Shown here: piece after piece, positions 2,271 to 42,171 of the stretch
Position numbering within the stretch: position 1 is the first letter of the stretch
Layout: the number at the start of each line of letters is the position of its first letter
Source of the DNA: a virus
Taxonomy: Duplodnaviria > Heunggongvirae > Uroviricota > Caudoviricetes
Direction: 5' to 3' (one strand)
IMG/VR virus record: IMGVR_UViG_2671180473_000007
Length of the DNA: 43,998 nucleotides
Translations under genes and position numbers: made by a program
The notes under the pieces: model-generated
What the model was told of the DNA's origin: nothing
What the model saw: only the letters and a program-made list of their open reading frames with translations
Databases searched by the model: none

Positions 2271-2963
2271 TTACGTAACATCAAACGCTCTAATTGTTCC
2301 CAAATCCTCCAGACCACTCAGCTCCTCTTTCATTTCACGCTGACGGCGATAAATCTCATCGTTGCGATCGACCTGCGCCTGCACCATTGCTGCCGCCAGT
2401 TCTTCCAGTTCCGGCATCGACAGTTTCACCTGCTGATTATCGGCATCNNNNNNNNNNNNNNNNNNNNNNNNNNNNNNNNNNNNNNNNNNNNNNNNNNNNN
2501 NNNNNNNNNNNNNNNNNNNNNNNNNNNNNNNNNNNNNNNNNNNNNNNNNNNNNNNNNNNNNNNNNNNNNNNNNNNNNNNNNNNNNNNNNNNNNNNNNNNN
2601 NNNNNNNNNNNNNNNNNNNNNNNNNNNNNNNNNNNNNNNNNNNNNNNNNNNNNNNNNNNNNNNNNNNNNNNNNNNNTTCCATTCAAACGTGAACGGCTTC
2701 GCCTCCTGTTCTGTGCGCCATGCTTCAATTTCCTGACGTCTGGCCTCTCTGGCCGCTTCCAGCATTTCTGGTGTCACAGTGAATGGGGCTATCTCACCCC
2801 ATTTGCCACTTTGCAGTTCCTGCCAGATTCGCTGACCCGTCGGTGCGACATCATCAGCGGTGGCTGTGTAGGGGACTGCCTGGTCCCTGTCGTCAAAAAA
2901 AACGTCACAGTCTACTGCGCCACTTTCGGTATAACGGGGATTAATGATTTTTTTAATTTCCAC
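2271..2963 (-). CDS. Phage tail fibre assembly protein (Tfa-like), interrupted by an assembly gap
   Basis: ORF track 2271..3023; lies directly downstream of a side-tail-fibre gene. Start trimmed to GTG at 2963 (GAGGAA 6 nt upstream, coupled to the stf stop). Contains a run of N, so true length is unknown. Confidence 0.55.
   Translation of the reverse strand: MEIKKIINPRYTESGAVDCDVFFDDRDQAVPYTATADDVAPTGQRIWQELQSGKWGEIAPFTVTPEMLEAAREARRQEIEAWRTEQEAKPFTFEWXXXXXXXXXXXXXXXXXXXXXXXXXXXXXXXXXXXXXXXXXXXXXXXXXXXXXXXXXXXXXXXXXXXXXXXXXXXXXDADNQQVKLSMPELEELAAAMVQAQVDRNDEIYRRQREMKEELSGLEDLGTIRAFDVT
2447..2676. other. Run of ~230 N (assembly gap or masked sequence)
   Basis: Literal n characters in the sequence; translated as X in overlapping ORFs. 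Confidence 0.99.
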
Positions 2964-2973
2964 GGTGCATTCC

Positions 2974-4146
2974 TCACGATGTGCGAATAAAAAGCCCGGG
3001 CATTGCGCCAGAGACATGAGCATCCGGCACCCCGGACAGGGCGCAATATGACCCCGGTAATGAATGCTCTGAACATCCCGTAATGAAAAATTGTGGGGAT
3101 GCTATATACGTTCCGGTGGGAGTACTGGGCACTGAAATCCCCACCGGTCCCAGTCGTGAGCCTCTGTATGACTGCCCCCTGACAAGTCTGATGACTTTAT
3201 CACCGTCAGCTTCTCCCTGGTACGCAGCAATAATCAGCCCGCCAATGTCAGGGTCTCCCCATCTGTTGCAGACAGAGCTCGCCACGATTCTGTAAATAAT
3301 ATCTTCTGTGGTTATATTTATTTTCACCCAGCCAGTCAGTCTGGATATGGGCCAGTAGCAGTAGCGGGTGTGATAAATGGGGCCGTTAATGCCGTAAAAA
3401 GTAAGGGATTTGGCTCTGTACCTCGGTTCTGTTGTCTCAGGGCGTGCATCAGTCCACCGGATGCTGAGCACCCCTTCAAACCGTGTGTCGGGTATGATGA
3501 TGTCGTAGGGGCCAGCAACGGAATATTCACCTGGCAGCGCATTCCTTACCCAGGCCAGGAAATCACTCTTAGTGTCAAAACGGATAACATCTTCAGGCAG
3601 AAAAGCACACCCAAAGCCGAATGCGCCGGGTATCGCCAGACGGCCTTTTGTCCGGTCGTAAATGTCGCTCTGTGCTTCCATCGTGGCCGCACTTTTCAGC
3701 CCCAGATTATCCCGGGACTTCTGTTGTGCCTTTTCGCCTGCTGCTGCGATTTCAGACAGATGGTTAGCCGTTTTCAGAGTGCCGGTCAGCGCAGCATCAA
3801 TGTCATTTTTGGCCTGCTCTGCTGCGCGGGCATAACCTGCGGCTGCCGCCACATCCTGCGCCGTCTGCTGTGCGTTTCCGGCTGCGGCCCCGGCGCTCTG
3901 CTGCGCCTGCGCCACCATTTCCTCAAAGCGTTTGACGACATCCGGTTTCAGGTCGCCCTCATCAGGAGCAATCAGAAAGTCATTCAGCGTGCCGGGCTTT
4001 GAGTCGTCGTATACAGCAATGTCGCCAACGTTGTACTCGTTGTGCCAGCCCGGTTTCAGATACACACCATATTTTCCAGTCCGCGCATGGAAACAGTATT
4101 CACCATCGTTTCCTGTCATCACATCAGCAACAGTGTGCATCACCAC
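2974..4146 (-). pseudogene. Lambda Stf-like side tail fibre protein, apparently 5'-truncated
   Basis: 390-aa ORF with YDDSKPGTLNDF...RFEEMVAQA motif resembling the N-terminal region of lambdoid Stf. Frame is open upstream to 4203 without an RBS and runs into the IS66 terminal repeat at 4163, suggesting ~20 N-terminal codons were lost. Confidence 0.6.
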
Positions 4147-5614: not shown

Positions 5615-5768
5615 GACAGGATTTCCTTGTGTATGTGGGGTGCTCTGTGGCGCTCTGAGATGTGATTTGATTGAGGGTTTTACAGCGCGGACATTTAACT
5701 TCCAGATAACTGAAGCTGGCTCGTGCCAGTAGCTTGTTACAATGTCGGCACCGTATGTTTCGATACAT
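5568..5768 (-). CDS. com: Com-like zinc-finger translational activator
   Basis: ORF track 5568..5813 trimmed to ATG at 5768 (GGAGG 9 nt upstream); [35 protein letters not shown] has the CxxC...CxxC pattern and resembles Mu Com as I recall it. Confidence 0.7.
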
Positions 5769-5789
5769 GGCCGCATAACCTCCTGCTTT

Positions 5790-5840
5790 GTTGTTGATAT
5801 CTTTATCACTCAATCGATCGACAAAAACGATCGATTTGAT
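5790..5840 (-). promoter_or_regulatory. Putative com-mom promoter regulatory region with clustered GATC (Dam) sites
   Basis: GATC at 5816-5819 and 5829-5832 within nested atcgatcg palindromes, ~50-65 bp upstream of the com start; Mu Pmom is controlled by Dam methylation of upstream GATC sites. Confidence 0.4.
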
Positions 5841-6024
5841 TTATTTAATTGATACAACAAATAACACGAAATGTCATTAGCGAAAATTTATGAGTTTGAT
5901 CACTAATTTTAAACGGTGCTGTAACGCATAAGTGCTGAATGATTGTACATTTGAATACCGCAAAGCAAACAAATCAACTAATTTATAGAAGTCAATTGGT
6001 TAATTGCCAGCGTAAGAGGCTGCT

Positions 6025-6740: not shown

Positions 6741-6775
6741 GTATATCCTCCTTATGCGGGAATAAAGCCCTGCAA

Positions 6776-7102: not shown

Positions 7103-9157
7103 TTACGCGTTATTCACTTCCACCACGATACTGTCAATCAGTACCGGGTAAGTCGCATTTTTAGTGATATCGGTCACGCGCAACTTGTCTGCCGTAAACG
7201 TGCCGACCGGAGACTGCGACAGCATGAATGGTGTCCCGTCCTTACCATCAATGACCGGCGTCACCTCAATACTGTTGTTACCGGCAAAACGGAAGCCCAG
7301 CGTATGCCATTCGTTATTAAATGCGCCGAATGACCCCAGCTTCGTGTTCTGCGCCGTGTTTCCTTTGTGATACATCACGTTAAGGTCTGTGGCATCGCTC
7401 TGTACGTAGAACGATGCCAGCAGGTTATGACCGGCATTTCCTTCCAGAGTAACCCCTTGCGGCAGGGCAGAAACCGGCCAGTACAGCGCCAGTGCGTACT
7501 GATTAGCCGTAAGCGCGCCATCGAGTTTAAAACGACAACTGACAAGACCACCTTTACCCAGCAGGTCCGCACCATTACCAGCATCATGCTCAAGGTACCA
7601 GGGGGCTCTTCCTGTTTCCTTGGTCAGTTTCATTGCCTTACCCCCGCTGGCTCCGGCATCATCCACGATTTGAGCCTTGCCACCTCCGGCAGCCCAACCC
7701 TGTGGTGTCAACCGTCCTTCAGACTCAGATGCCCGGTAAGCAAATAGCGTACTCATCGTCGTGGTGTCTGCGGGTGGCGTGGACGGTTTTGATGGTGTAT
7801 CAGGTGACGGCTTCTCATCCGGTGGTGTCACGGTCTGCCCACGCATCAGTTCAGCCGTGCGCCCTGCATGGAGCATAATAGCTGAGGCCAGACGGTCTGA
7901 AATGACGCCCCTGCGTGCCCATGAGCTGAAATGGCTGTCACGCTGTGTCGAAACAAAACTGCCCTGGGTTCGGGATGCTGCACCGTAATACCCGACAGCC
8001 ACAATATCCGGGTCTTCCGCCGGAGCATTCGTTGGCGTGCTCTGTCCATTCTCATCCGTCAGGAACGGTACAAAGAAAATTTTCTGTGCTTCCTTGCCTT
8101 TGTAGCCACCGTATACTGCCTCATATTTATCGGTGCCAGCGTTTTTCCAGTAATACGTGGTATCACCGCAAATCCACGGCACCGTGGTGGCATTTCCACT
8201 CACGCACTGCGCAGCAAGCGGAGCCAGGTCAGTTCTGAACTGCTGAACCATGGCCGTGAATAAACTATTATGCTGCTGGCTTCCTGAGGCAAGGTCTGCC
8301 TCTCCCTGCATCCAGACCACAGCCAGAAGTTTGTTTTTCGGGTTTTTCGCCAGCGCGACTTTGGTGCGGCTTACCAGGTCCTGATACAGAGGTTTACCGG
8401 CCCCCCAGCGTGAAGAATCAGCGGAAGCACCGCTGGCCTCACTGAATGAGCCGTCGGCTCCAGTGGTGAATGCTGACCCGCCACGACAACAGGGCACCAG
8501 AAGTATCCCGGCATTCTGTGGGATATAGGGAAGCAGTTTTTTGGCAATATGCAACCCCTGACCGACAGTCCCGTACTGGCCTTTTGCCAGATCAGCTTTC
8601 GGGTGGTTTATCCCGCTCATATCCTGAACATCATGCAGGCAGTGGTCTGCCGGAATGATGTCGTTGTATGTACACGACGTACCGTTGGGCGTTACCGTAC
8701 TGCGGCGTGCCAGTTGCTTAATGCGTGGGTCCGGGCGGTCAAACGAATCCGGTAACGGCAGCCCCTCGCCGTAGGCCATGCCATTTGACTGACCCGCGAG
8801 AATGACAACAAAGTAATATTCCGGCTCTGAACTGCTGCCATTCGTGCTACCGGAAGGCCCGGCGTTATCCGGTGCATTCCAGTCGGAGGGCGTGAGCGTT
8901 CCGGCCACGTCAGATGTGATTGGAATGATGCCAGTCACGCCTGAACTGGTGATTTCTGCACTGGGATTACCGGATACCGGCATTACCCATAATGGCTCTT
9001 TCGTGCTGAAGCGGATCACGCAGTCTGCGAAGGTGATCCCCCCTTTATTACCCGAAGGGCGGAAAGGGCTTTCAATAAATGCCACCGTGCCACCGGCAAC
9101 CTTGACTGAAAACTCTCCGGGCATGGCGGAGAGCATTTTCCACTTGGAGTCTGACAT
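7103..9157 (-). CDS. SASA/SGNH-family carbohydrate esterase (prophage NanS-p-like sialate O-acetylesterase candidate) with C-terminal lectin-like domain
   Basis: 684-aa ORF; VILAGQSNGMAYGEG resembles the GQSNM catalytic block of sialate O-acetylesterase-type domains, with WMQGEAD and DHCLHD further on. Sits between gin and mom, where Mu has no gene. Confidence 0.6.
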   Translation of the reverse strand: MSDSKWKMLSAMPGEFSVKVAGGTVAFIESPFRPSGNKGGITFADCVIRFSTKEPLWVMPVSGNPSAEITSSGVTGIIPITSDVAGTLTPSDWNAPDNAGPSGSTNGSSSEPEYYFVVILAGQSNGMAYGEGLPLPDSFDRPDPRIKQLARRSTVTPNGTSCTYNDIIPADHCLHDVQDMSGINHPKADLAKGQYGTVGQGLHIAKKLLPYIPQNAGILLVPCCRGGSAFTTGADGSFSEASGASADSSRWGAGKPLYQDLVSRTKVALAKNPKNKLLAVVWMQGEADLASGSQQHNSLFTAMVQQFRTDLAPLAAQCVSGNATTVPWICGDTTYYWKNAGTDKYEAVYGGYKGKEAQKIFFVPFLTDENGQSTPTNAPAEDPDIVAVGYYGAASRTQGSFVSTQRDSHFSSWARRGVISDRLASAIMLHAGRTAELMRGQTVTPPDEKPSPDTPSKPSTPPADTTTMSTLFAYRASESEGRLTPQGWAAGGGKAQIVDDAGASGGKAMKLTKETGRAPWYLEHDAGNGADLLGKGGLVSCRFKLDGALTANQYALALYWPVSALPQGVTLEGNAGHNLLASFYVQSDATDLNVMYHKGNTAQNTKLGSFGAFNNEWHTLGFRFAGNNSIEVTPVIDGKDGTPFMLSQSPVGTFTADKLRVTDITKNATYPVLIDSIVVEVNNA

Positions 9158-9233
9158 CGTCTTTTCTGCCTGTTTCTGAATTAAACAGAGTCAGAATAGC
9201 GACCGCTGAAAAATATGTGTTTTGCGGAAATTC

Positions 9234-9262
9234 AAAAAAGCGTCACGGTACTTTTGGTGACG
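9234..9262 (-). terminator. Rho-independent terminator at the 3' end of the invertase gene
   Basis: Stem cgtcac/gtgacg (9241-9246/9257-9262) overlapping the invertase stop, followed on the minus strand by a U6 run (plus-strand aaaaaa 9234-9239). Confidence 0.45.
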
Positions 9263-9815
9263 GAGCTGGTGAGGCAGGAAAATAACGATAAAGGGTGGAA
9301 AGGCCAATATCAAATATCAGTGCGATTTGTTTACGGGACTCGCCATTAGCCAGCAAACGGGCGATTTGCTCCCGCTCTTTCTCTGTCAGTTTCTGAGGTC
9401 TGCCGCCATGACGCCCCTGAGCACGGGCAGCAGCAAGACCCGCGCGTGTACGTTCAATAATGAGTTCCCGCTCCATTTCCGCCAGCGCGCCCATTATATG
9501 GAAAAAGAAACGTCCCATGGGAGTGGATGTATCAATATTGTCCGTAATGCTGCGGAAGTTAACGCCGCGTTGCCGGAGTTCTTCTGTTAAAAGGACAAGG
9601 TGCTGCATACTGCGTCCAAGGCGATCCAGTTTCCAGACCAGCAGGGTATCCCCTGGCCGGAGTCGCTTTAATGCGCGTTTAAGTCCGGGACGCTCCCTTG
9701 TCTTACCGCTTATTCTGTCTTCGAAAAACAGCTCACATCCTGCACATTCCAGCGCATTTCTTTGTAGCGCCGTATTCTGGTCATTTGTTGACACCCTGAT
9801 ATACCCAATCAGCAT
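9243..9815 (-). CDS. gin: Serine-recombinase DNA invertase (Gin/Pin/Cin/Hin family)
   Basis: 190-aa ORF MLIGYIRVSTNDQNTALQRNALECAGCELFFEDRISGKTRERPGLKRALKRLRPGDTLLVWKLDRLGRSM..., near-colinear with Mu Gin as I recall it; adjacent to a gix-like site and the invertible segment. Confidence 0.93.
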   Translation of the reverse strand: MLIGYIRVSTNDQNTALQRNALECAGCELFFEDRISGKTRERPGLKRALKRLRPGDTLLVWKLDRLGRSMQHLVLLTEELRQRGVNFRSITDNIDTSTPMGRFFFHIMGALAEMERELIIERTRAGLAAARAQGRHGGRPQKLTEKEREQIARLLANGESRKQIALIFDIGLSTLYRYFPASPAPSPKVP

Positions 9816-9880
9816 ACGATTTCCTTATTATAAAAAGCCGGAATTGTCGCATGAGGAATAAAACAGAGTTAATCCTGGCT

Positions 9881-9906
9881 TTCCTGAAAACCTCGGTTTA
9901 CGGGAA
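9881..9906. other. gix-like recombination site (left crossover site of invertible segment)
   Basis: TTCCTGAAAACCTCGGTTTACGGGAA: 26-bp imperfect dyad closely resembling the Gin/Hin-family crossover-site consensus; 66 bp from the invertase start. Confidence 0.7.
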
Positions 9907-10018
9907 ACGGTAAACAGGGCGGCGAATGCTCTGCCATCGGACGGCACCGCCGTTGCCGCGAATAGACTCGCCACCCCAAGAAATATTAATGGGGTTCCCT
10001 TTGACGGGACGCAGGACA
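9894..10018 (+). repeat. Inverted repeat, left copy (~125 bp)
   Basis: Near-identical to the reverse complement of 11087-11211 with one divergent central patch; encodes ...[24 protein letters not shown]...[12 protein letters not shown] in both copies. Confidence 0.85.
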
Positions 10019-10254
10019 TAAACATCACTTCTGGTATAACACAGCAGGATGCGGATTCCCGATATATCCAGGATATCAGGCTGGGAGCAGAGAACAGGCA
10101 GGTAATGTACGGTGGGGCATATTACTCTGCGTACGGTAATGTTATGGCAGGCCTGCAGATTGACAGTAAAGTTGATGCTTCAAACGATTTTATAGCATTC
10201 AGACCCCTGCAAAAATTAGTCGGAGGTACATGGATTACGGTATCTCAGTTATAA
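9894..10254 (+). other. Silent alternative tail-fibre C-terminal cassette (Sv'-like), promoterless in current orientation
   Basis: Plus-strand frame continuing from the inverted repeat: ...[89 protein letters not shown], stop at 10252-10254; no start codon of its own. Confidence 0.7.
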
Positions 10255-10305
10255 ATAGTCAGTAAATAATATATTTTAAAACAGATTTATTTCCAGGAGG
10301 ATTTT

Positions 10306-10827
10306 ATGGAACTAAAAAATATAACCCGTTATTATCCTGAAAATATGCCATATGGTAATAATGTTCAGTATTTCCAGAGTGAAGATGGTAAGGATTTCTA
10401 CGAATCCCTGCCATTATTCACCAAAAAATATAAACTTTGCATAACACCTGACAGCGGCGTTATCTGCTCAATATCACAGGACGCCTCGGCGCTGTATCCT
10501 GCGGGGTTTTCTGTGGTTGAGGTCGATGAACTCCCTGAAGGCACGGATATTTCAGGAAACTGGAAGTTTGATAATGGCATAATCTCCCGTATTCCGGTTA
10601 ACTACGCAAGAAAACTGGAAGCAATGCGCCAGTCATATCTTAATCAGGCATATGAAAAAATTAATGACTGGAGAACGGAGCTACAACTGGGCACCATCAG
10701 CGATGAAGACAGAGCAGCACTTACCCAATGGATGGCATACATCAGTCAGGTGAAGAAAATGGAACTACCCGCCATTAAAACAGAAGCTGAATTTAACGCC
10801 ATTAAATGGCCTGAGCAGCCACAGTAA
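10306..10827 (+). CDS. Tail fibre assembly protein (U'/Tfa-like) inside the invertible segment
   Basis: 173-aa ORF with AGGAGG RBS; C-terminus ...EAEFNAIKWPEQPQ typical of Tfa chaperones; follows the Sv' cassette on the same strand. Confidence 0.75.
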   Translation: MELKNITRYYPENMPYGNNVQYFQSEDGKDFYESLPLFTKKYKLCITPDSGVICSISQDASALYPAGFSVVEVDELPEGTDISGNWKFDNGIISRIPVNYARKLEAMRQSYLNQAYEKINDWRTELQLGTISDEDRAALTQWMAYISQVKKMELPAIKTEAEFNAIKWPEQPQ

Positions 10828-10831
10828 TAAA

Positions 10832-10849
10832 GAAGGCCGGAAGGCCTTC
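10832..10849. terminator. Bidirectional terminator hairpin between convergent tfa and tail-fibre genes
   Basis: Stem gaaggcc/ggccttc with ggaa loop, flanked by A/T-rich tracts on both sides. Confidence 0.5.
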
Positions 10850-10858
10850 TGAATATCA

Positions 10859-11740
10859 TTATATACTTGCAGCCGTCACCCATGCTCCATTTAACAGATA
10901 CTGCAACGGCCGGTAATACACGCCGCCGACGTTATCTGCCGTATTCTTACCGACATCCTGTACTTTAATTCCGGTAAGAACATTGCCGCCCCCCAGATTC
11001 AGATCCCAGCTTTCCCATGTTCCGGGCATATGTGCGGTCACCGACCCCAGTCTTATGGCGGTTACTGTTCCTGATGAGATAGTGATATCCTGCGTCCCGT
11101 CAAAGGGAACACCATTAATTGTGTGGGCATTTGCCAGCCTGTTCGCGGCAACGGCGGTGCCGTCCGATGGCAGGGCATTCGCCGCCCTGTTTACCGTTTC
11201 CCGTAAACCGACGTTATCGATAAAAGCCCCTTTATCCGGAATGTCTGCGCCGTTCTGCTCCCTGCGCAGGTAACGGTTATCACCTTCGCTTTTGCTGTAA
11301 ACATCCAGATTATTACGGGCGGTTCCCTTATTCTCCAGGTCGGCGAGATTCTGATCCTTCGCCAGGGCATTAACGTCAGCGGGACCAAGACTGTTTTTTG
11401 TGGCAAGCGTCCCCAGACCAAGATAACCACGGGCCAGACGCTGGGCCTCCGCACCGGCATCAGCAATTTCTTTCAGGTTATTTTTCCGGGAAAAGGCATT
11501 CGCAGCGATAATGGCTTTAATGGACAGCGTAAGCTGGTTTAACTGCGCCTTATCCGGCTGAATACTGGCTTCAGCCAGAATATTCAGCAGTTCGGCCTGG
11601 AGAATATTCAGCCAGTCCTGACCAATCCAGCTGATACCTTTTTGTCCGTCACCTTCGGTAAACCAGGTGGTGGTATTACTCTGCGCCGGTGCCAGCGCAG
11701 GCATATTCGCCACGCCGGAATTATTATCAACATGAAACAT
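10859..11740 (-). CDS. Tail fibre protein (S-like): constant N-terminal part plus currently expressed variable C-terminus
   Basis: 293-aa ORF; residues ~177-218 are encoded by the right inverted repeat and the last ~75 aa lie inside the invertible segment; start overlaps the upstream baseplate gene stop (TAATG). Confidence 0.85.
11087..11211 (-). repeat. Inverted repeat, right copy (~125 bp)
   Basis: Reverse complement of 9894-10018 with a few mismatches. Confidence 0.85.
11198..11223. other. gix-like recombination site (right crossover site)
   Basis: TTCCCGTAAACCGACGTTATCGATAA, 26-bp imperfect dyad related to the left site, at the outer edge of the right inverted repeat. Confidence 0.65.
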
Positions 11741-12300
11741 TAAATAGTCTCCTCTTCATGGCTGTTTGCATAAACGTAAATAAACGTCTGCCATGCAGGC
11801 TTATAACGGTTCAGAATACATTCCAGCGCACCGCCTTCATAAATACGCAGCGGCGTGAGAATATCATCCAGCACATTCATATTCCGGTAGCCGGTTTCAC
11901 TGTTAATCGTGACAATACTGACCCACTGCGAATCCGGTGAGGGCTGAATGTCAATCTGATAACCAAACTCCGCCGCAAACCGGATATAAAATTCACGGTT
12001 CAGCGAGGGCTTCATCCGGTATTTATTTCCGGCATAACGCTGTCGCTCCGTGAGGGTGGCTCCGGCCATATCACACTCGGGAAGCCCGAGATAACGCTCC
12101 CAGTCTTCCAGCAGCAGGCGCGACGTGTCAGGGAAACGCTCGGCAAGCAGCTGTTTACCCGTCCAGGATACACGCGCTGTCGAATGACTGAGGCCCAGAC
12201 ATAATGATGCCAGTACGGATGACGGACGCTTGTCCCATGCCAGCCCGTCAGGCAGTAACTGCAACAGGGCGCGCTGATGCGGGGTCAGGGTTACAGCCAT
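11740..12300 (-). CDS. Baseplate/tail protein (Mu gp48-like)
   Basis: 186-aa ORF immediately upstream of the tail fibre gene, as in Mu; assignment by position. Confidence 0.6.
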
Positions 12301-13373
12301 GTGATTTCTCCTACCGTCAGCAGCTCACTGTCTCCCGCCTGAACTGACGTCAGCGGACTGCGCACTTCAAAATCCTCCAGATTTTTCACCCCTGCCACCG
12401 CCCGCCAGAAAGACGACGGCAGAACCAGACCGCCGGGCCGGGATTCGTTATACAACAGGTCGGTCAGCGCCTGTTTTACGGCCGCCTGATTCTCCGGTGT
12501 TTTCGGGATGATCCTGATGCTGAAGGGCACCGGCTTATTGGTCAGTTTAAACACGGTCACCGTCGGCCCCAGAGGCTGTCCGACAGGCTGGCCGGTCGCC
12601 GGATCATCATGACTGCGGATATAATCCGCCACCCGCTGAACATCACCGTCACCGGGGAAAATATCCGGGTTATTATCCTGAACAAACGTTACCCCCACGC
12701 TGCCCGCCTGCGGCCATTCCGGGCGGCACCATGCCCGCGTCACGCCCGGCACTTCACGCGCCCAGCGTTCAAAATCATACTGCGTGCCGCCGGACGGTGG
12801 ATTCTGCACCCGGAAAACCAGACGGGAAAGCAGCTCCGGCACGGTTTCCACATCCGCACCACCGGTGATCCCCGTTCCGGTCACCGTGGCCGTCTGGTTG
12901 ATCCCCGCCTGCGGTGTGATAAATGTCAGTTTTGTCCCTGCCGGGGCATTCCCCGCACGACCGGCACTTTCGGCTTCCACACTGACATTCAGCGTACCGG
13001 CCTTACCGGTCAGGGAGGTGGTGATACGGTAAACCACGCCATCACTTCGCTGGAGAAGCACACCTTCCTTGATCCCCGCATCCGTGGTCAGCATCAGCTG
13101 AACCGGCCCGTCCCCCCGAGAGGCAGGCTTACGCATGACGCCCCAGAATGCACAGTGTTTCAGCAGTTCGGCTTCATCGGCTTCGGTCGGGATGATCTGA
13201 CGCGCAATCCAGGCCAGATGCTCATGCTCCTGAGCAGATAACCCTGCCTGAGCGTAAGCAATGGCATTCAGGGTGGTTTCATTCACACCCGGCTGCGAGC
13301 CGGGCAGGCGCTGGCTGATATCCTGCTGTGTCTGCGTGATTAACTGTGCCAGCGGTAAAGGCTGATAAGGCAT
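12291..13373 (-). CDS. Baseplate J-like protein (Mu gp47-like)
   Basis: 360-aa ORF in the baseplate gene block; assignment by size and position. Confidence 0.65.
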   Translation of the reverse strand: MPYQPLPLAQLITQTQQDISQRLPGSQPGVNETTLNAIAYAQAGLSAQEHEHLAWIARQIIPTEADEAELLKHCAFWGVMRKPASRGDGPVQLMLTTDAGIKEGVLLQRSDGVVYRITTSLTGKAGTLNVSVEAESAGRAGNAPAGTKLTFITPQAGINQTATVTGTGITGGADVETVPELLSRLVFRVQNPPSGGTQYDFERWAREVPGVTRAWCRPEWPQAGSVGVTFVQDNNPDIFPGDGDVQRVADYIRSHDDPATGQPVGQPLGPTVTVFKLTNKPVPFSIRIIPKTPENQAAVKQALTDLLYNESRPGGLVLPSSFWRAVAGVKNLEDFEVRSPLTSVQAGDSELLTVGEITWL

Positions 13374-38844: not shown

Positions 38845-39072
38845 TTAGCTGACTTGTTTCGCACCAACAGAACGGCATATTCCGCTGTAAACTTCTGTCG
38901 CACCTTCGCGATCAAGTCCGGCAGATATCACCATTCGTGTGCGGTCATTAAATTCAAAAAGTAAATCGCCACATTCTTTATTTTCGGCCAGTGAAATCAC
39001 CTTCACGTTATCGAAATTAACCAGGTAAAAGCGTCCGTAAATATCAGGAATATTAAATACCGCCATAATCAC
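38845..39072 (-). CDS. Hypothetical small protein immediately downstream of B (Mu kil position)
   Basis: 75-aa ORF whose start overlaps the B stop (GTGA). Confidence 0.4.
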   Translation of the reverse strand: MIMAVFNIPDIYGRFYLVNFDNVKVISLAENKECGDLLFEFNDRTRMVISAGLDREGATEVYSGICRSVGAKQVS

Positions 39073-40010
39073 ACCTGTGAGAGTAATTCAGGGTTGGTAT
39101 AAACCTCTTTAAAGGCCGCATTAATATGTTTTTCTGTCAGCGCCGCGCCTTCACCGCTGGCGGTGAGCCACGCCTGGTTAAGCGTATGTGTCAGAACGCG
39201 TAACGCTCCCGGCTTTTCAGCGATAGCCTGCATGACGGCCAGCTCGGCCTCACCACTGATCCCCCACGCCATGGCAATGGCCAGCACATCCGCCTTTTTG
39301 GCCTTGCGAAGTTGTTTTGTACGGGCAAGACGGCTGAACAGGCGCGATAAATCATCAAAGGCGCGGCGTCCACCTTTAAACAATCCGCGCGGGTTACCAA
39401 TAAGCACCATCCCGATCCCCGTGGCGTCCTGAATTGCCCGGAGTTGCTCCAGACCGTCAATACCAAGATGATCCGCCTCATCCACAATCACCAGTCCACG
39501 CGTTCCCATCAGGCGACGGCGGATGGCGCGGGATAATGCCCCTTTGTTCGCGCGGGTGTAATCAATCCCCAGCGCATCGGCCAGCTCCAGCAGACACTCC
39601 GTGACGCTGGAGTGCGCGGGTGACAGGGTGATCATCCAGGTGTTTGGTTGCTCCTGGCAGTAATTACGGGCAGTGGCCGTTTTACCCACACCCGGTACGC
39701 CCACAATAACGTTAATACAGCCCATCAGGCGAACCGCCTGAAACAGTGCGCGCAGCTCCTGGACTGTCTGAGTTTCCACAAACTGCGGCGGTTCCGGCAG
39801 TGCGCTTTGTTTATTCCAGTTCTCATACCAGGAGCGCAGGGAAGCAGCCACAGCAGCGTTATCGCCTTTATATTTTCCCTTACGGAAAGCCGATAATGTG
39901 CCGTCGGAAATTCCCGCCTCTCTGGCGATGGCATACTGCGTCAGTACGCCGCCATCAATAAGTTCATCAATGGTCTTGATTACATCGTTAATATCGGTCA
40001 TATTATTCAC
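39069..40010 (-). CDS. Transposition ATPase B (MuB-like, AAA+)
   Basis: 313-aa ORF with Walker A VIVGVPGVGKTATARNY and Walker B-like LVIVDEADHL, directly downstream of the transposase gene. Confidence 0.88.
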   Translation of the reverse strand: MNNMTDINDVIKTIDELIDGGVLTQYAIAREAGISDGTLSAFRKGKYKGDNAAVAASLRSWYENWNKQSALPEPPQFVETQTVQELRALFQAVRLMGCINVIVGVPGVGKTATARNYCQEQPNTWMITLSPAHSSVTECLLELADALGIDYTRANKGALSRAIRRRLMGTRGLVIVDEADHLGIDGLEQLRAIQDATGIGMVLIGNPRGLFKGGRRAFDDLSRLFSRLARTKQLRKAKKADVLAIAMAWGISGEAELAVMQAIAEKPGALRVLTHTLNQAWLTASGEGAALTEKHINAAFKEVYTNPELLSQV

Positions 40011-40083: not shown

Positions 40084-42171
40084 TCAGGCCAGCGGATCAC
40101 TTTCTTTTAATTTCGCTTCGAGCAGTTGCAATCCCCGCTGGAAATTACGCTCGTATTCTTCATCAGGTTCATCGTCAGCGACCGGTTGCTGAACGGTCAC
40201 CGTATTACCCACAGGGCGGTATATGTTTTCCAGCCAGGGCTCCTGCGGCTTGTGCTCCAGCACGTTGACAACCTCATCCTCGGCATCACGGATTTTTTCC
40301 TCTGCGCGTTTACGCATGCCTTTAAGGCGCTGCTGCTGTTTGTAGTATTCCGCGCTGACAGGGAAGGCTTCGCGTTTATTGCCGTCCCATACCGCCTCGC
40401 AAATCACGCTGCCATCCGGGCGGCGCACGGTAATTCGTTCGGCATCATGAATGTCATAGCTGATAAGTACCTTACGGCCATGCTCGTCACGCAGCTCGGG
40501 CGCGTAGTAAATATTATTCAGCCAGCGTATTTCACAGCGTCTTACAGGGCGCTCCACCATCGGCCGGAACATATCCCGCAGTTCAACATCGGACAGCCAT
40601 TCAATTTCCGTGTCCTCTTCCGCCAGGCGTTTTTTTCTGAACTCCGCCGGGCTGTAATGTTTACCGTTCGGCTTCATGGGTAATTCATCGTGCGGCCGGT
40701 TGTTGTACCACTCAACACCGTCACGAATGGCATCAATCAGTTCAGACCAGGACGGTAAATCACGCATCGCTGACTGCTGCCGGGCGTTCAGCCGTTTGCC
40801 CTGTTGCAGGGCACTGAATGCCGAGCGTAAATCGCGGTTGGTTTTACGTAACGTCTCGCGATCTGCTCCTTTCCCGAAATAGGTGCGGTATTTACGGGCT
40901 ATGCGCATCGGTAATGTGCGGTTAAGCCGTTCGATAATGCCCCGTCCCTGCGGATTACCGGCAATCCCTGTCGGGTGATTAATCCCCAGTCGTGGCAGTA
41001 TCCCCACAATCTCCTTATCCAGGACGTCGGCGGTTTCCCCGGAGCCATTATCCGAGTAATACAGAAACGGTTTGCCATGATGGCGAATACCGTGCTGTAT
41101 GGCACCGGCTACGGCGAAAACATTTTCAGCCAGGTCAAGGCTCCAGCCCACCACAAAGCGCGTGCCACCGTCGATAACAAAGGTCACTTCCGGTGCGAAT
41201 GGCCGCCCGTGAACCGGGTGCGCGCATTTCAGCTTCATGCCGTGACCGTCACCAATCCAGACATAATTCACCGGCATTCTGGACCAGTCGCGGCGCGTGA
41301 ATCCCTCAAGCTGACGGTATTCACTGCCAGTTACCCGGCCTTTTTGTTTCACCACTTCCGGCAGTTTCTTCATTGCGCGGCGAATGGTGTCATAAGAGGG
41401 CATGATATCGAGCATATAAGGCTCATCAGCGTGCCGGTGCTGCCATTCAGCAACAAAATCCTCGTAAGCCTCGGTCATTGGTCGGCCGTTTGACTGGCGA
41501 TACTGCGCCAGAAATTCGGGCAGCCAGTTAATATCTTCGGCTTTTATTTCCTGGCGTTTACCCGGTGCCAGTAAAAGCAGGCGTTCAGCGGCGTTCTGTG
41601 CCTTGTTAAAGGCCGCAATCCAGCGTTTCAGCGTGATTTCACTCAACGCGCGGCTGTTTCCCTTTTTGGCGTTCGCCGTCTCAACCATTGCCACAATGCG
41701 CTCGTCCAGTTGTGATCGTGCCAGGCTGTTAACGAGGAACCGGATAGCTTTAGCGCAGCTGAAACCGGGTTGTTGCGTGAATTTCAGCACCTCACTGACG
41801 ATCGCAATGCGTGCGTCTGCCACCTGGCGCTGGTTTTCAGTCAGGGCATTGAGGCGTTCGACCATCAGTTGTGGTGATCCGCGATATGCCTCCACCGCAT
41901 CAACCACGGCAGACGAGCGTCTGGCCTTTGTCACCACCGGAGCCGGTGATTCATCGGCTTTTTGCGTCATCAGTTGCAGGGCATAACGTTCGCGTAATGC
42001 CTGCTGTGTCACTTCAGGTAAACAGTCAATGCTGTATTCAAAACCTTTAGCGCCTTTCTTGCGGCGTCTGCTGGTTTCGCTGGTTGCATACTTCCTGATT
42101 GAATAGCGAACGCCTTGCTCCGTTCCCGGCATCCCCGGTAATCCAACCAGTTCTTTAACTGAAGCAAACAT
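40084..42171 (-). CDS. Mu-like DDE transposase (MuA family)
   Basis: 695-aa ORF; N-terminal end-binding domain resembling MuA as I recall it, central integrase-type catalytic core, followed by the B gene. Confidence 0.9.
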   Translation of the reverse strand: MFASVKELVGLPGMPGTEQGVRYSIRKYATSETSRRRKKGAKGFEYSIDCLPEVTQQALRERYALQLMTQKADESPAPVVTKARRSSAVVDAVEAYRGSPQLMVERLNALTENQRQVADARIAIVSEVLKFTQQPGFSCAKAIRFLVNSLARSQLDERIVAMVETANAKKGNSRALSEITLKRWIAAFNKAQNAAERLLLLAPGKRQEIKAEDINWLPEFLAQYRQSNGRPMTEAYEDFVAEWQHRHADEPYMLDIMPSYDTIRRAMKKLPEVVKQKGRVTGSEYRQLEGFTRRDWSRMPVNYVWIGDGHGMKLKCAHPVHGRPFAPEVTFVIDGGTRFVVGWSLDLAENVFAVAGAIQHGIRHHGKPFLYYSDNGSGETADVLDKEIVGILPRLGINHPTGIAGNPQGRGIIERLNRTLPMRIARKYRTYFGKGADRETLRKTNRDLRSAFSALQQGKRLNARQQSAMRDLPSWSELIDAIRDGVEWYNNRPHDELPMKPNGKHYSPAEFRKKRLAEEDTEIEWLSDVELRDMFRPMVERPVRRCEIRWLNNIYYAPELRDEHGRKVLISYDIHDAERITVRRPDGSVICEAVWDGNKREAFPVSAEYYKQQQRLKGMRKRAEEKIRDAEDEVVNVLEHKPQEPWLENIYRPVGNTVTVQQPVADDEPDEEYERNFQRGLQLLEAKLKESDPLA

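Follow-up and report, generated by a model that had tools for sequence, protein, structure and literature searches.

The G segment of phage Mu carries two tail-fibre assembly (tfa) genes, U and U', in the arrangement S-U / U'-S'. The P segment of e14 in Escherichia coli K-12 likewise has a tfa gene for each of its two fibre ends, arranged as stfP-tfaP / tfaE-stfE. Grundy and Howe reportedly found in 1984 that, in Mu, S requires U and S' requires U'. Tfa is usually treated as the private partner of the fibre gene upstream of it, a rule that guides annotation as well as host-range engineering, in which the pair is moved together. Here, we analysed the IMG/VR virus record IMGVR_UViG_2671180473_000007 (Caudoviricetes), a DNA stretch of 43,998 nucleotides (nt) to which we refer as the window. 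The window is a complete Sp18-like, Mu-like prophage encoded on the minus strand, from transposase-size open reading frames (ORFs) through the tail genes, and harbours an invertible tail-fibre segment with a single tfa gene. The Sp18-like family is a natural exception to the pairing rule, in that one Tfa stands between two alternative, homologous tips. We propose, with a probability of roughly 0.55, that this single Tfa is shared by both tips and that its gene is transcribed independently of the orientation of the segment.

The segment and the genes that frame it comprise the following features (window coordinates; aa, amino acids):

9243-9815, minus strand: serine DNA invertase of the Pin/Gin family, 190 aa (Pfam Resolvase 1.6e-51, HTH_7 4.9e-15)
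9881-9906: site R, gix-like, 26 bp, invertase-proximal, TTCCTGAAAACC-TC-GGTTTACGGGAA, read from the sequence
9880-10254, plus strand: silent fibre 3' cassette (translation; PHROG tail-fibre family matches)
9886-10034, plus strand: shared 47-aa stretch of the silent cassette, repeat-encoded
10035-10254, plus strand: 'beta' tip of the silent cassette, ending FRPLQKLVGGTWITVSQL
10255-10305, plus strand: tfa leader, AT-rich, 51 nt; a strong Shine-Dalgarno sequence (AGGAGG) precedes the ATG by 7 nt
10306-10827, plus strand: tfa, the sole tail-fibre assembly gene, 173 aa (Pfam Caudo_TAP 4.8e-19)
10831-10850: GC-rich hairpin, AGAAGGCC-GGAA-GGCCTTCT, terminator-like on the minus strand
10859-11740, minus strand: in-frame tail-fibre gene, 293 aa (phrog_1833 6.7e-141), crossing site L
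10859-11069, minus strand: 'alpha' tip, in frame
11070-11218, minus strand: repeat-encoded fibre stretch, ~47 codons
11212-11740, minus strand: constant fibre shaft, 176 aa
11198-11223: site L, gix-like, 26 bp, inside the fibre gene, reverse complement TTATCGATAACG-TC-GGTTTACGGGAA
9886-10034 and 11070-11218: inverted repeats, 150 bp, 84-93% complementary

Sites R and L share an identical core (TC/GA), are mutually inverted, closely resemble gixL and gixR of Mu and are placed at the outer ends of the 150-bp inverted repeats. The invertible segment spans ~9895-11209 (~1.3 kb). Adjoining it, the invertase combines an N-terminal resolvase catalytic domain with a C-terminal helix-turn-helix domain and is 74% identical to Mu Gin, and this high identity to gin makes it plausible that the 5' part of its gene also contains a Fis-dependent recombinational enhancer. 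When inversion was simulated in silico at the core dinucleotide of both sites, the silent cassette fused in frame to the constant 176 aa, yielding a 296-aa fibre that is indeed annotated in naturally inverted genomes. The last ~120 fibre codons are exchanged, namely ~47 near-identical, repeat-encoded codons and a variable tip of 70-75 codons. The simulated inverted sequence of 2601 bp aligned to the natural allele of strain NCCP 13983 (L004) in a single gapless alignment with 99.73% identity, and the inverted form was found in five complete E. coli genomes (97.5-99.9% identity). Because both orientations occur naturally and the simulated inversion matches a natural allele without gaps, the segment is an active 1.3-kb invertible element. 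An earlier reading of the window, the original prediction, had placed the segment at 10013-10859; its one-tfa content stands, its extent does not, as the invertible DNA reaches 9895 and 11209. Likewise, the expressed fibre C-terminus had been assigned to 10859-11086, of which the end at 10859 is correct, whereas the fully variable tip begins only near 11069. Each of the strains DLI.5a (hits H14/H30), TOE17 (H20/H31) and AST46 (H9/H34) carries the element twice, in opposite orientations, which fits a Mu-like phage that transposes and has an active switch.

With an invertase, paired inverted sites, an in-frame exchange of fibre 3' ends and both orientations in nature, the segment shares the defining features of the Gin/Cin/Pin/Hin type; what it lacks is a co-oriented tfa for each fibre end. 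Functionally, it is a host-range switch of the Gin/Pin type that agrees with its relatives in all structural respects tested except this one. In common with Mu G, it has the order gp47/gp48, fibre, segment and invertase, the same core dinucleotide and homologous coding sequence just inside the site (GGAAACGGTAAACAGGGC). An AAGGCC hairpin lies between the convergent U and U' genes of Mu, analogous to the hairpin between tfa and the fibre gene in the window; with the U' equivalent precisely absent, the inter-tfa hairpin abuts the stop codon of the tip. Differences concern size, as Mu G comprises ~3 kb with a fibre of 504 aa, compared with 1.3 kb and 293 aa in the window, and the inverted repeats, which measure 34 bp in Mu and 150 bp in the window, where they lie inside the segment. 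In this comparison, the segment reads as a Mu G segment minus ~200 aa of shaft per fibre and minus U'. The e14 P segment resembles that of the window in being compact, in its position beside the Pin invertase (PinE and the window invertase share 72% identity) and downstream of a YmfQ-family gene, and differs from it in having a tfa for each fibre end.

The product of the single tfa gene is a member of the family PF02413/Caudo_TAP (69.2 bits against a cut-off of 22.1) and also matches phrog_136 (4.7e-56) and Mu U (PDB 5yvq_B; 4e-16), with identities of 28% to U and 32% to U'. In the orientation of the window, tfa is co-oriented with the silent beta cassette and convergent with the in-frame fibre gene; only after inversion does it directly follow its client fibre gene on the same strand. 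The stop codons of tfa (10827) and of the fibre gene (10859-10861) are separated by 31 nt, which are occupied by the hairpin, so that there is no room for a tfa gene on the minus strand. ORFs were listed down to 30 aa and all minus-strand ORFs of the segment were scanned against PHROG: they comprise 32-66 aa, lie antisense to tfa or the cassette and gave no PHROG match. In addition, tblastn searches of the whole 44-kb window, with Mu U, U' and the window's own Tfa as queries, detected no second Tfa homologue (next best E = 0.4). The claims that the segment holds only one tfa, that this gene follows the silent cassette and that the expressed fibre has none on its strand are therefore borne out, including by the search for a short minus-strand ORF proposed alongside them, and the contrast drawn with the two-chaperone segment of Mu holds as well.

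The original prediction implied an oddity of one locus, which proved wrong once related segments were compared as it had suggested. Relatives of the region are present in 237 of 5426 complete E. coli genomes (~4%), and every Sp18-like locus inspected, including those of O157:H7 and other Shiga toxin-producing E. coli (STEC), has the one-tfa layout with the conserved order invertase, co-oriented tip, tfa, convergent tip and constant fibre part. The layout was also found in about 30 IMG/VR loci. Prophage Sp18 of O157:H7 Sakai and its relatives show the same architecture, with a constant fibre part 95-99% identical to that of the window. STEC loci bear other tip and Tfa alleles: the window tips differ from the STEC type, and the window Tfa is 61-65% identical to STEC-type Tfa. 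The single tfa is a conserved architecture of the family, neither decay nor accident. Scans of GTDB representative genomes with Tfa and fibre alignments found no relatives; since the back-translated patterns were very allele-specific, this result says little on the taxonomic range.

Within the family, the orientation seen in the window is the common one:

Window-type alleles, complete E. coli genomes: tfa convergent in 20, co-oriented in 5
STEC-type alleles, complete E. coli genomes: tfa convergent in 184, co-oriented in 16
IMG/VR loci: tfa convergent in 18, co-oriented in 7

Hence, tfa is antisense to the fibre gene in 204 of 225 complete genomes (~91%), a count drawn from consensus assemblies of related, non-independent genomes. 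Such a bias is hard to reconcile with the convergent state being dead. A naturally locked variant occurs in STEC2017-197, which has a frameshifted invertase (L003, 3050-3540) and a convergent tfa.

The arrangement is not confined to Sp18-like phages. P2-like contigs (L182/L192 and L229/L236) have the order tip1, tfa, convergent tip2 and invertase, which is the layout of the window, with fibres unrelated to those of the window (Phage_tail_fib N-terminus, Gp53-like_C or Collar tips); L229 and L236 represent both orientations of one segment type. Among 80 Pin-linked IMG/VR loci, two convergent tfa genes are the norm. Site detection in this survey was too strict and left 50 loci unresolved, and only tfa counts upstream of the invertase were used. 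The one-tfa layout is thus recurrent and combined with unrelated fibre families, and we found no description of it in the searchable literature. Likewise, the searchable Sp18-related literature yielded no mention of the single-tfa feature, of the orientation bias or of the invertase-less derivative introduced below.

But do alpha tips need a Tfa at all? Residues 1-191 of the fibre match Mu S/S' (PDB 5yvq_A and 8ju3_A; ~1e-46), which covers the N-terminal region for baseplate attachment, homologous to Mu gp49. The fibre falls short of a full-length shaft of ~500 aa: at 293 aa it is without ~200 aa of the Mu shaft, which would lie between the constant part and the tip. At the distal end, a single domain of ~75 aa aligns eight tips, comprising the window pair, O157 tips, Mu S and S' and an alpha-like tip of a non-invertible phage. 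All share the motif RLG...G.V.TG...YYRP.Q...NG.W.T, which makes the window tips S/S'-type tips; they hit the same PHROG families, and direct HMMER matches to the S/S' C-termini were weak. In Sp18-like loci, the convergent slot is always occupied by alpha tips (...SADNxGGVYYRPxQ...), and the co-oriented slot by beta tips, which fall into three allele types; one type is very close to the Mu S tip. Alpha tip ORFs are intact in all alleles compared, and the alpha tip is without a C-terminal extension that could serve as an intramolecular chaperone.

We then surveyed 80 IMG/VR loci bearing this tip domain family, mostly true Mu-type S tips. One locus was too near a contig edge to judge, 15 were Sp18-like and 64 were evaluable others. 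A co-oriented tfa starts -7 to +4 nt from the tip stop codon in 64 of the 64 loci outside the Sp18-like group, a figure that describes the whole tip-domain family rather than alpha tips specifically and includes one locus labelled 'none' by the script and re-read as co-oriented since its tfa ORF overlaps the tip end. Many of these loci are true Mu G segments. A convergent tfa, 35 nt away, was seen only in the 15 Sp18-like loci. In the non-invertible phages L041-L050, an alpha-like tip is followed by a spacer of ~17 nt and a Tfa that is 58-62% identical to that of the window. Because homologous tips elsewhere directly precede a co-oriented tfa, and because a C-terminal extension is missing, chaperone independence of the alpha tip appears unlikely.

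Can one Tfa then serve two tips? Mu U and U' share 57% identity. Sp18-like loci that agree in their beta tip (99% identity) can differ considerably in Tfa, with only 65% identity between the alleles, and across alleles the N-terminal half of Tfa is conserved at 73-91% identity, compared with 46-91% for the C-terminal half. According to PMC9608196, which summarises North et al. 2019, TfaMu is modular and its N-terminal domain binds the fibre tip. The tfa genes of the Yersinia phages PY54 and P840 are reported to be interchangeable (PMC10612081). Tfa looks generic for tips of this kind.

The strongest evidence that the convergent tfa may be expressed and used comes from an invertase-less derivative of the locus, here termed class B. 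It was detected in eight IMG/VR loci (L002 at 2957-3260, L018 and L022-L027) and in seven of the 5426 E. coli genomes; M3 is one of the class B strains. In all of them, a deletion with one common junction, equivalent to 9310-10305 of the window, has removed the invertase and the beta cassette, and tfa is retained in convergent orientation to the fibre gene. Their tfa leader of ~110 nt is that of invertible loci with a Mu-S-like beta tip. Co-transcription of this tfa with the fibre gene is impossible, and the alpha fibre is its sole adjacent client. Two alleles of the alpha tip and six of tfa are represented in class B. Every one of the six tfa alleles retains an intact reading frame of 173 codons; pairwise dS among them reaches 0.43, and dN/dS is 0.10-0.23, a range also seen for invertible loci. 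The class B tfa is under purifying selection. It is because tfa stays conserved with only an alpha fibre beside it that these loci argue for use of the convergent gene; indirectly, they also suggest that the Tfa may bind the C-terminal fibre tip and be needed for trimer assembly.

Following this argumentation, inversion at the gix-like sites places either the alpha or the beta tip on the constant 176-aa shaft, and a single Mu-U-like Tfa would chaperone both mutually homologous tips. As tfa inverts with the segment, it would be co-transcribed with the fibre gene in the beta state only. In the alpha state, which is the common one and that of the window, tfa converges with the fibre gene, with the hairpin between them, and would be read from an orientation-independent promoter of its own within or upstream of its leader. 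If tfa serves the alpha fibre, its transcription would have to run against that of the late operon. Among the explanations offered by the original prediction, use of the chaperone encoded in the opposite orientation is the one best supported, given the intact convergent tfa of class B and its dN/dS of 0.10-0.23.

Several points weigh against a shared Tfa. The route by which tfa would be expressed in the convergent state is one that we infer. A promoter scan of window positions 9100-11800 found no sigma-70-like promoter on the plus strand, and corresponding scans of class B and O157 loci returned chance-level sites only. A biased inversion equilibrium without functional meaning could yield the orientation counts. 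Finally, tfa is visibly mosaic, in that its 5' end goes with the leader preceding it and its 3' end with the tip located downstream, and recombination with invertible relatives could therefore have imported the selection signal into class B. Comparison by eye of the leaders with putative late-promoter gaps yielded no common motif. Phage late promoters are often activator-dependent, and for this reason a missing promoter is weak evidence.

An alternative is that the alpha tip folds without Tfa, so that tfa serves the beta tip only and is silent in the orientation of the window. The tfa gene is indeed co-oriented with the beta cassette alone, no promoter was found for the convergent state, and the segments of the P2-like contigs L182/L192 and L229/L236 also contain a tip without a tfa of its own. 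Some Mu-like fibres do without any Tfa homologue, as in Sf14 (PMC11821841). We nevertheless regard this explanation, which was among those of the original prediction, as unlikely: the alpha tip belongs to the same domain family as the tips of Mu S and S', each of which directly precedes its own co-oriented tfa, the survey extends this pairing to 64 of 64 homologous tips outside the Sp18-like family, there is no additional C-terminal domain that could act as an intramolecular chaperone, and class B, which has lost the beta tip, keeps tfa intact and constrained. If the alpha tip was independent of Tfa after all, comparison of two homologous tips of ~75 aa could reveal the residues that confer chaperone dependence.

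A further idea, which we consider doubtful, is a switch with two layers, in which inversion would change both the tip and the co-production of Tfa, or else a dedicated, orientation-independent late tfa promoter inside the invertible DNA. North and Davidson reportedly found in 2021 that the Tfa of Mu binds the host surface itself. With a two-layer switch, alpha particles would carry little or no Tfa, beta particles would be Tfa-capped, and tip and cap would jointly set the host range. The Tfa of Mu remains on the fibre tip of the virion (PMC9608196). A late tfa promoter within the invertible DNA, on the other hand, would be a regulatory arrangement undescribed for G-type segments.

That the orientation of the window is an OFF or defective state, in which the alpha fibre would misfold and infectious particles would arise only once the segment has flipped, was likewise raised by the original prediction. 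Mu and e14 provide every tip with its own co-oriented tfa, and the alpha tip has none. This explanation is very unlikely, however, as the supposedly dead orientation predominates in nature (204 of 225 genomes), is fixed in the diversified, invertase-less class B and goes along with intact alpha tip ORFs across alleles. Inversion of the Mu segment is slow (PMC10434027); if this applied here, a new lysogen would inherit the orientation of the infecting particle, and the functional state would be favoured.

It is highly improbable, too, that other prophages in the same cell supply Tfa in trans to the alpha fibre and thereby make the phage's own tfa dispensable in the orientation of the window. 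In favour of this idea, ~55 E. coli genomes, with many STEC among them, contain a ~93% match to the E-type leader plus the 5' end of tfa, in copies that are annotated as tfa genes and may lie in other prophages, and the interchangeability reported for tfa genes (PMC10612081) would allow such help. Chaperoning in trans leaves productive infection of naive hosts unexplained, does not account for the conserved convergent tfa of class B, and fits poorly with several carriers of window-type alleles that are not heavily polylysogenic STEC. A second, unrecognised chaperone of the alpha tip elsewhere in the segment or prophage, remote in sequence or of a novel type, is close to refuted by the mere 31 nt beyond the tip, the short minus-strand ORFs without PHROG match and the tblastn searches with three Tfa proteins, which revealed nothing further in 44 kb.

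The matching leaders are of interest in their own right: in hits H72-H81, the E-type leader together with the initial ~30 nt of tfa recurs with ~93% identity upstream of tfa genes elsewhere in STEC chromosomes, which suggests that 5' modules of tfa are exchanged between prophages.

If one Tfa serves both tips, as we propose, the specificity of Tfa would be broader than the pairing rule implies. The locus would then offer a minimal, tractable system, consisting of a 1.3-kb switch, a 293-aa fibre and a 173-aa Tfa, in which Tfa recognition can be mapped, and a chaperone promoter working independently of the late operon would be exposed. In any case, it is a compact natural system in which to study Tfa recognition and the expression of a chaperone gene located in invertible DNA.

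Current annotation conceals the fibre switch, because the NCBI Prokaryotic Genome Annotation Pipeline (PGAP) misses or mislabels the fibre ORF and the cassette. In O157:H7 ECP19-198, PGAP omits the intact 295-aa fibre ORF (L005, 5001-5888) and annotates merely a 67-aa 'tail fiber protein' at 5685-5888. The window-type fibre at 4660-5541 of L001 is labelled 'hypothetical protein', and the silent cassette there appears as a partial pseudogene.

The genes on either side of the fibre locus are as follows:

12291-13373, minus strand: baseplate J
11740-12300, minus strand: baseplate wedge protein of the Mu gp48/YmfQ family (Pfam Phage_Mu_Gp48 7.5e-22)
7103-9157, minus strand: SASA/DUF6645 protein, 684 aa, downstream of the invertase

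On the minus strand, the order is hence baseplate J, gp48/YmfQ, fibre, invertase and SASA/DUF6645 protein, and a plus-strand pair, the open fibre 3' cassette and the Caudo_TAP gene, sits between fibre and invertase. The gp48/YmfQ gene, annotated as YmfQ family in identical genomes, lies directly upstream of the fibre gene and anchors the fibre locus in the late tail operon. The transposase-size ORFs at 40084-42171 and 39069-40010 are putative transposition genes, assigned by size and position alone.

Genes for DUF1378 and DUF826 proteins follow the gene of the 684-aa protein. Just upstream of the DUF826 gene lies the palindromic TTATGCGGGAATAA (6752-6765) of the form TTAT-N6-ATAA, which we take to be the pattern of the Mu C-protein site of Pmom and which occurs in the Mu sequence. 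This lone match in the window lies away from tfa, is no better than chance (33 of 100 shuffles) and was dropped as a candidate. The 684-aa protein itself occupies the position that com/mom have downstream of the invertase in Mu. It matches NanS (PDB 3pt5; 1.8e-117) and NanS-p (PDB 6yp6; 7e-98) and, judged by these matches, is predicted to be a NanS-p-like 9-O-acetyl-sialic-acid esterase with a SASA domain and DUF6645, an enzyme type familiar from Shiga toxin (Stx) and lambdoid prophages.

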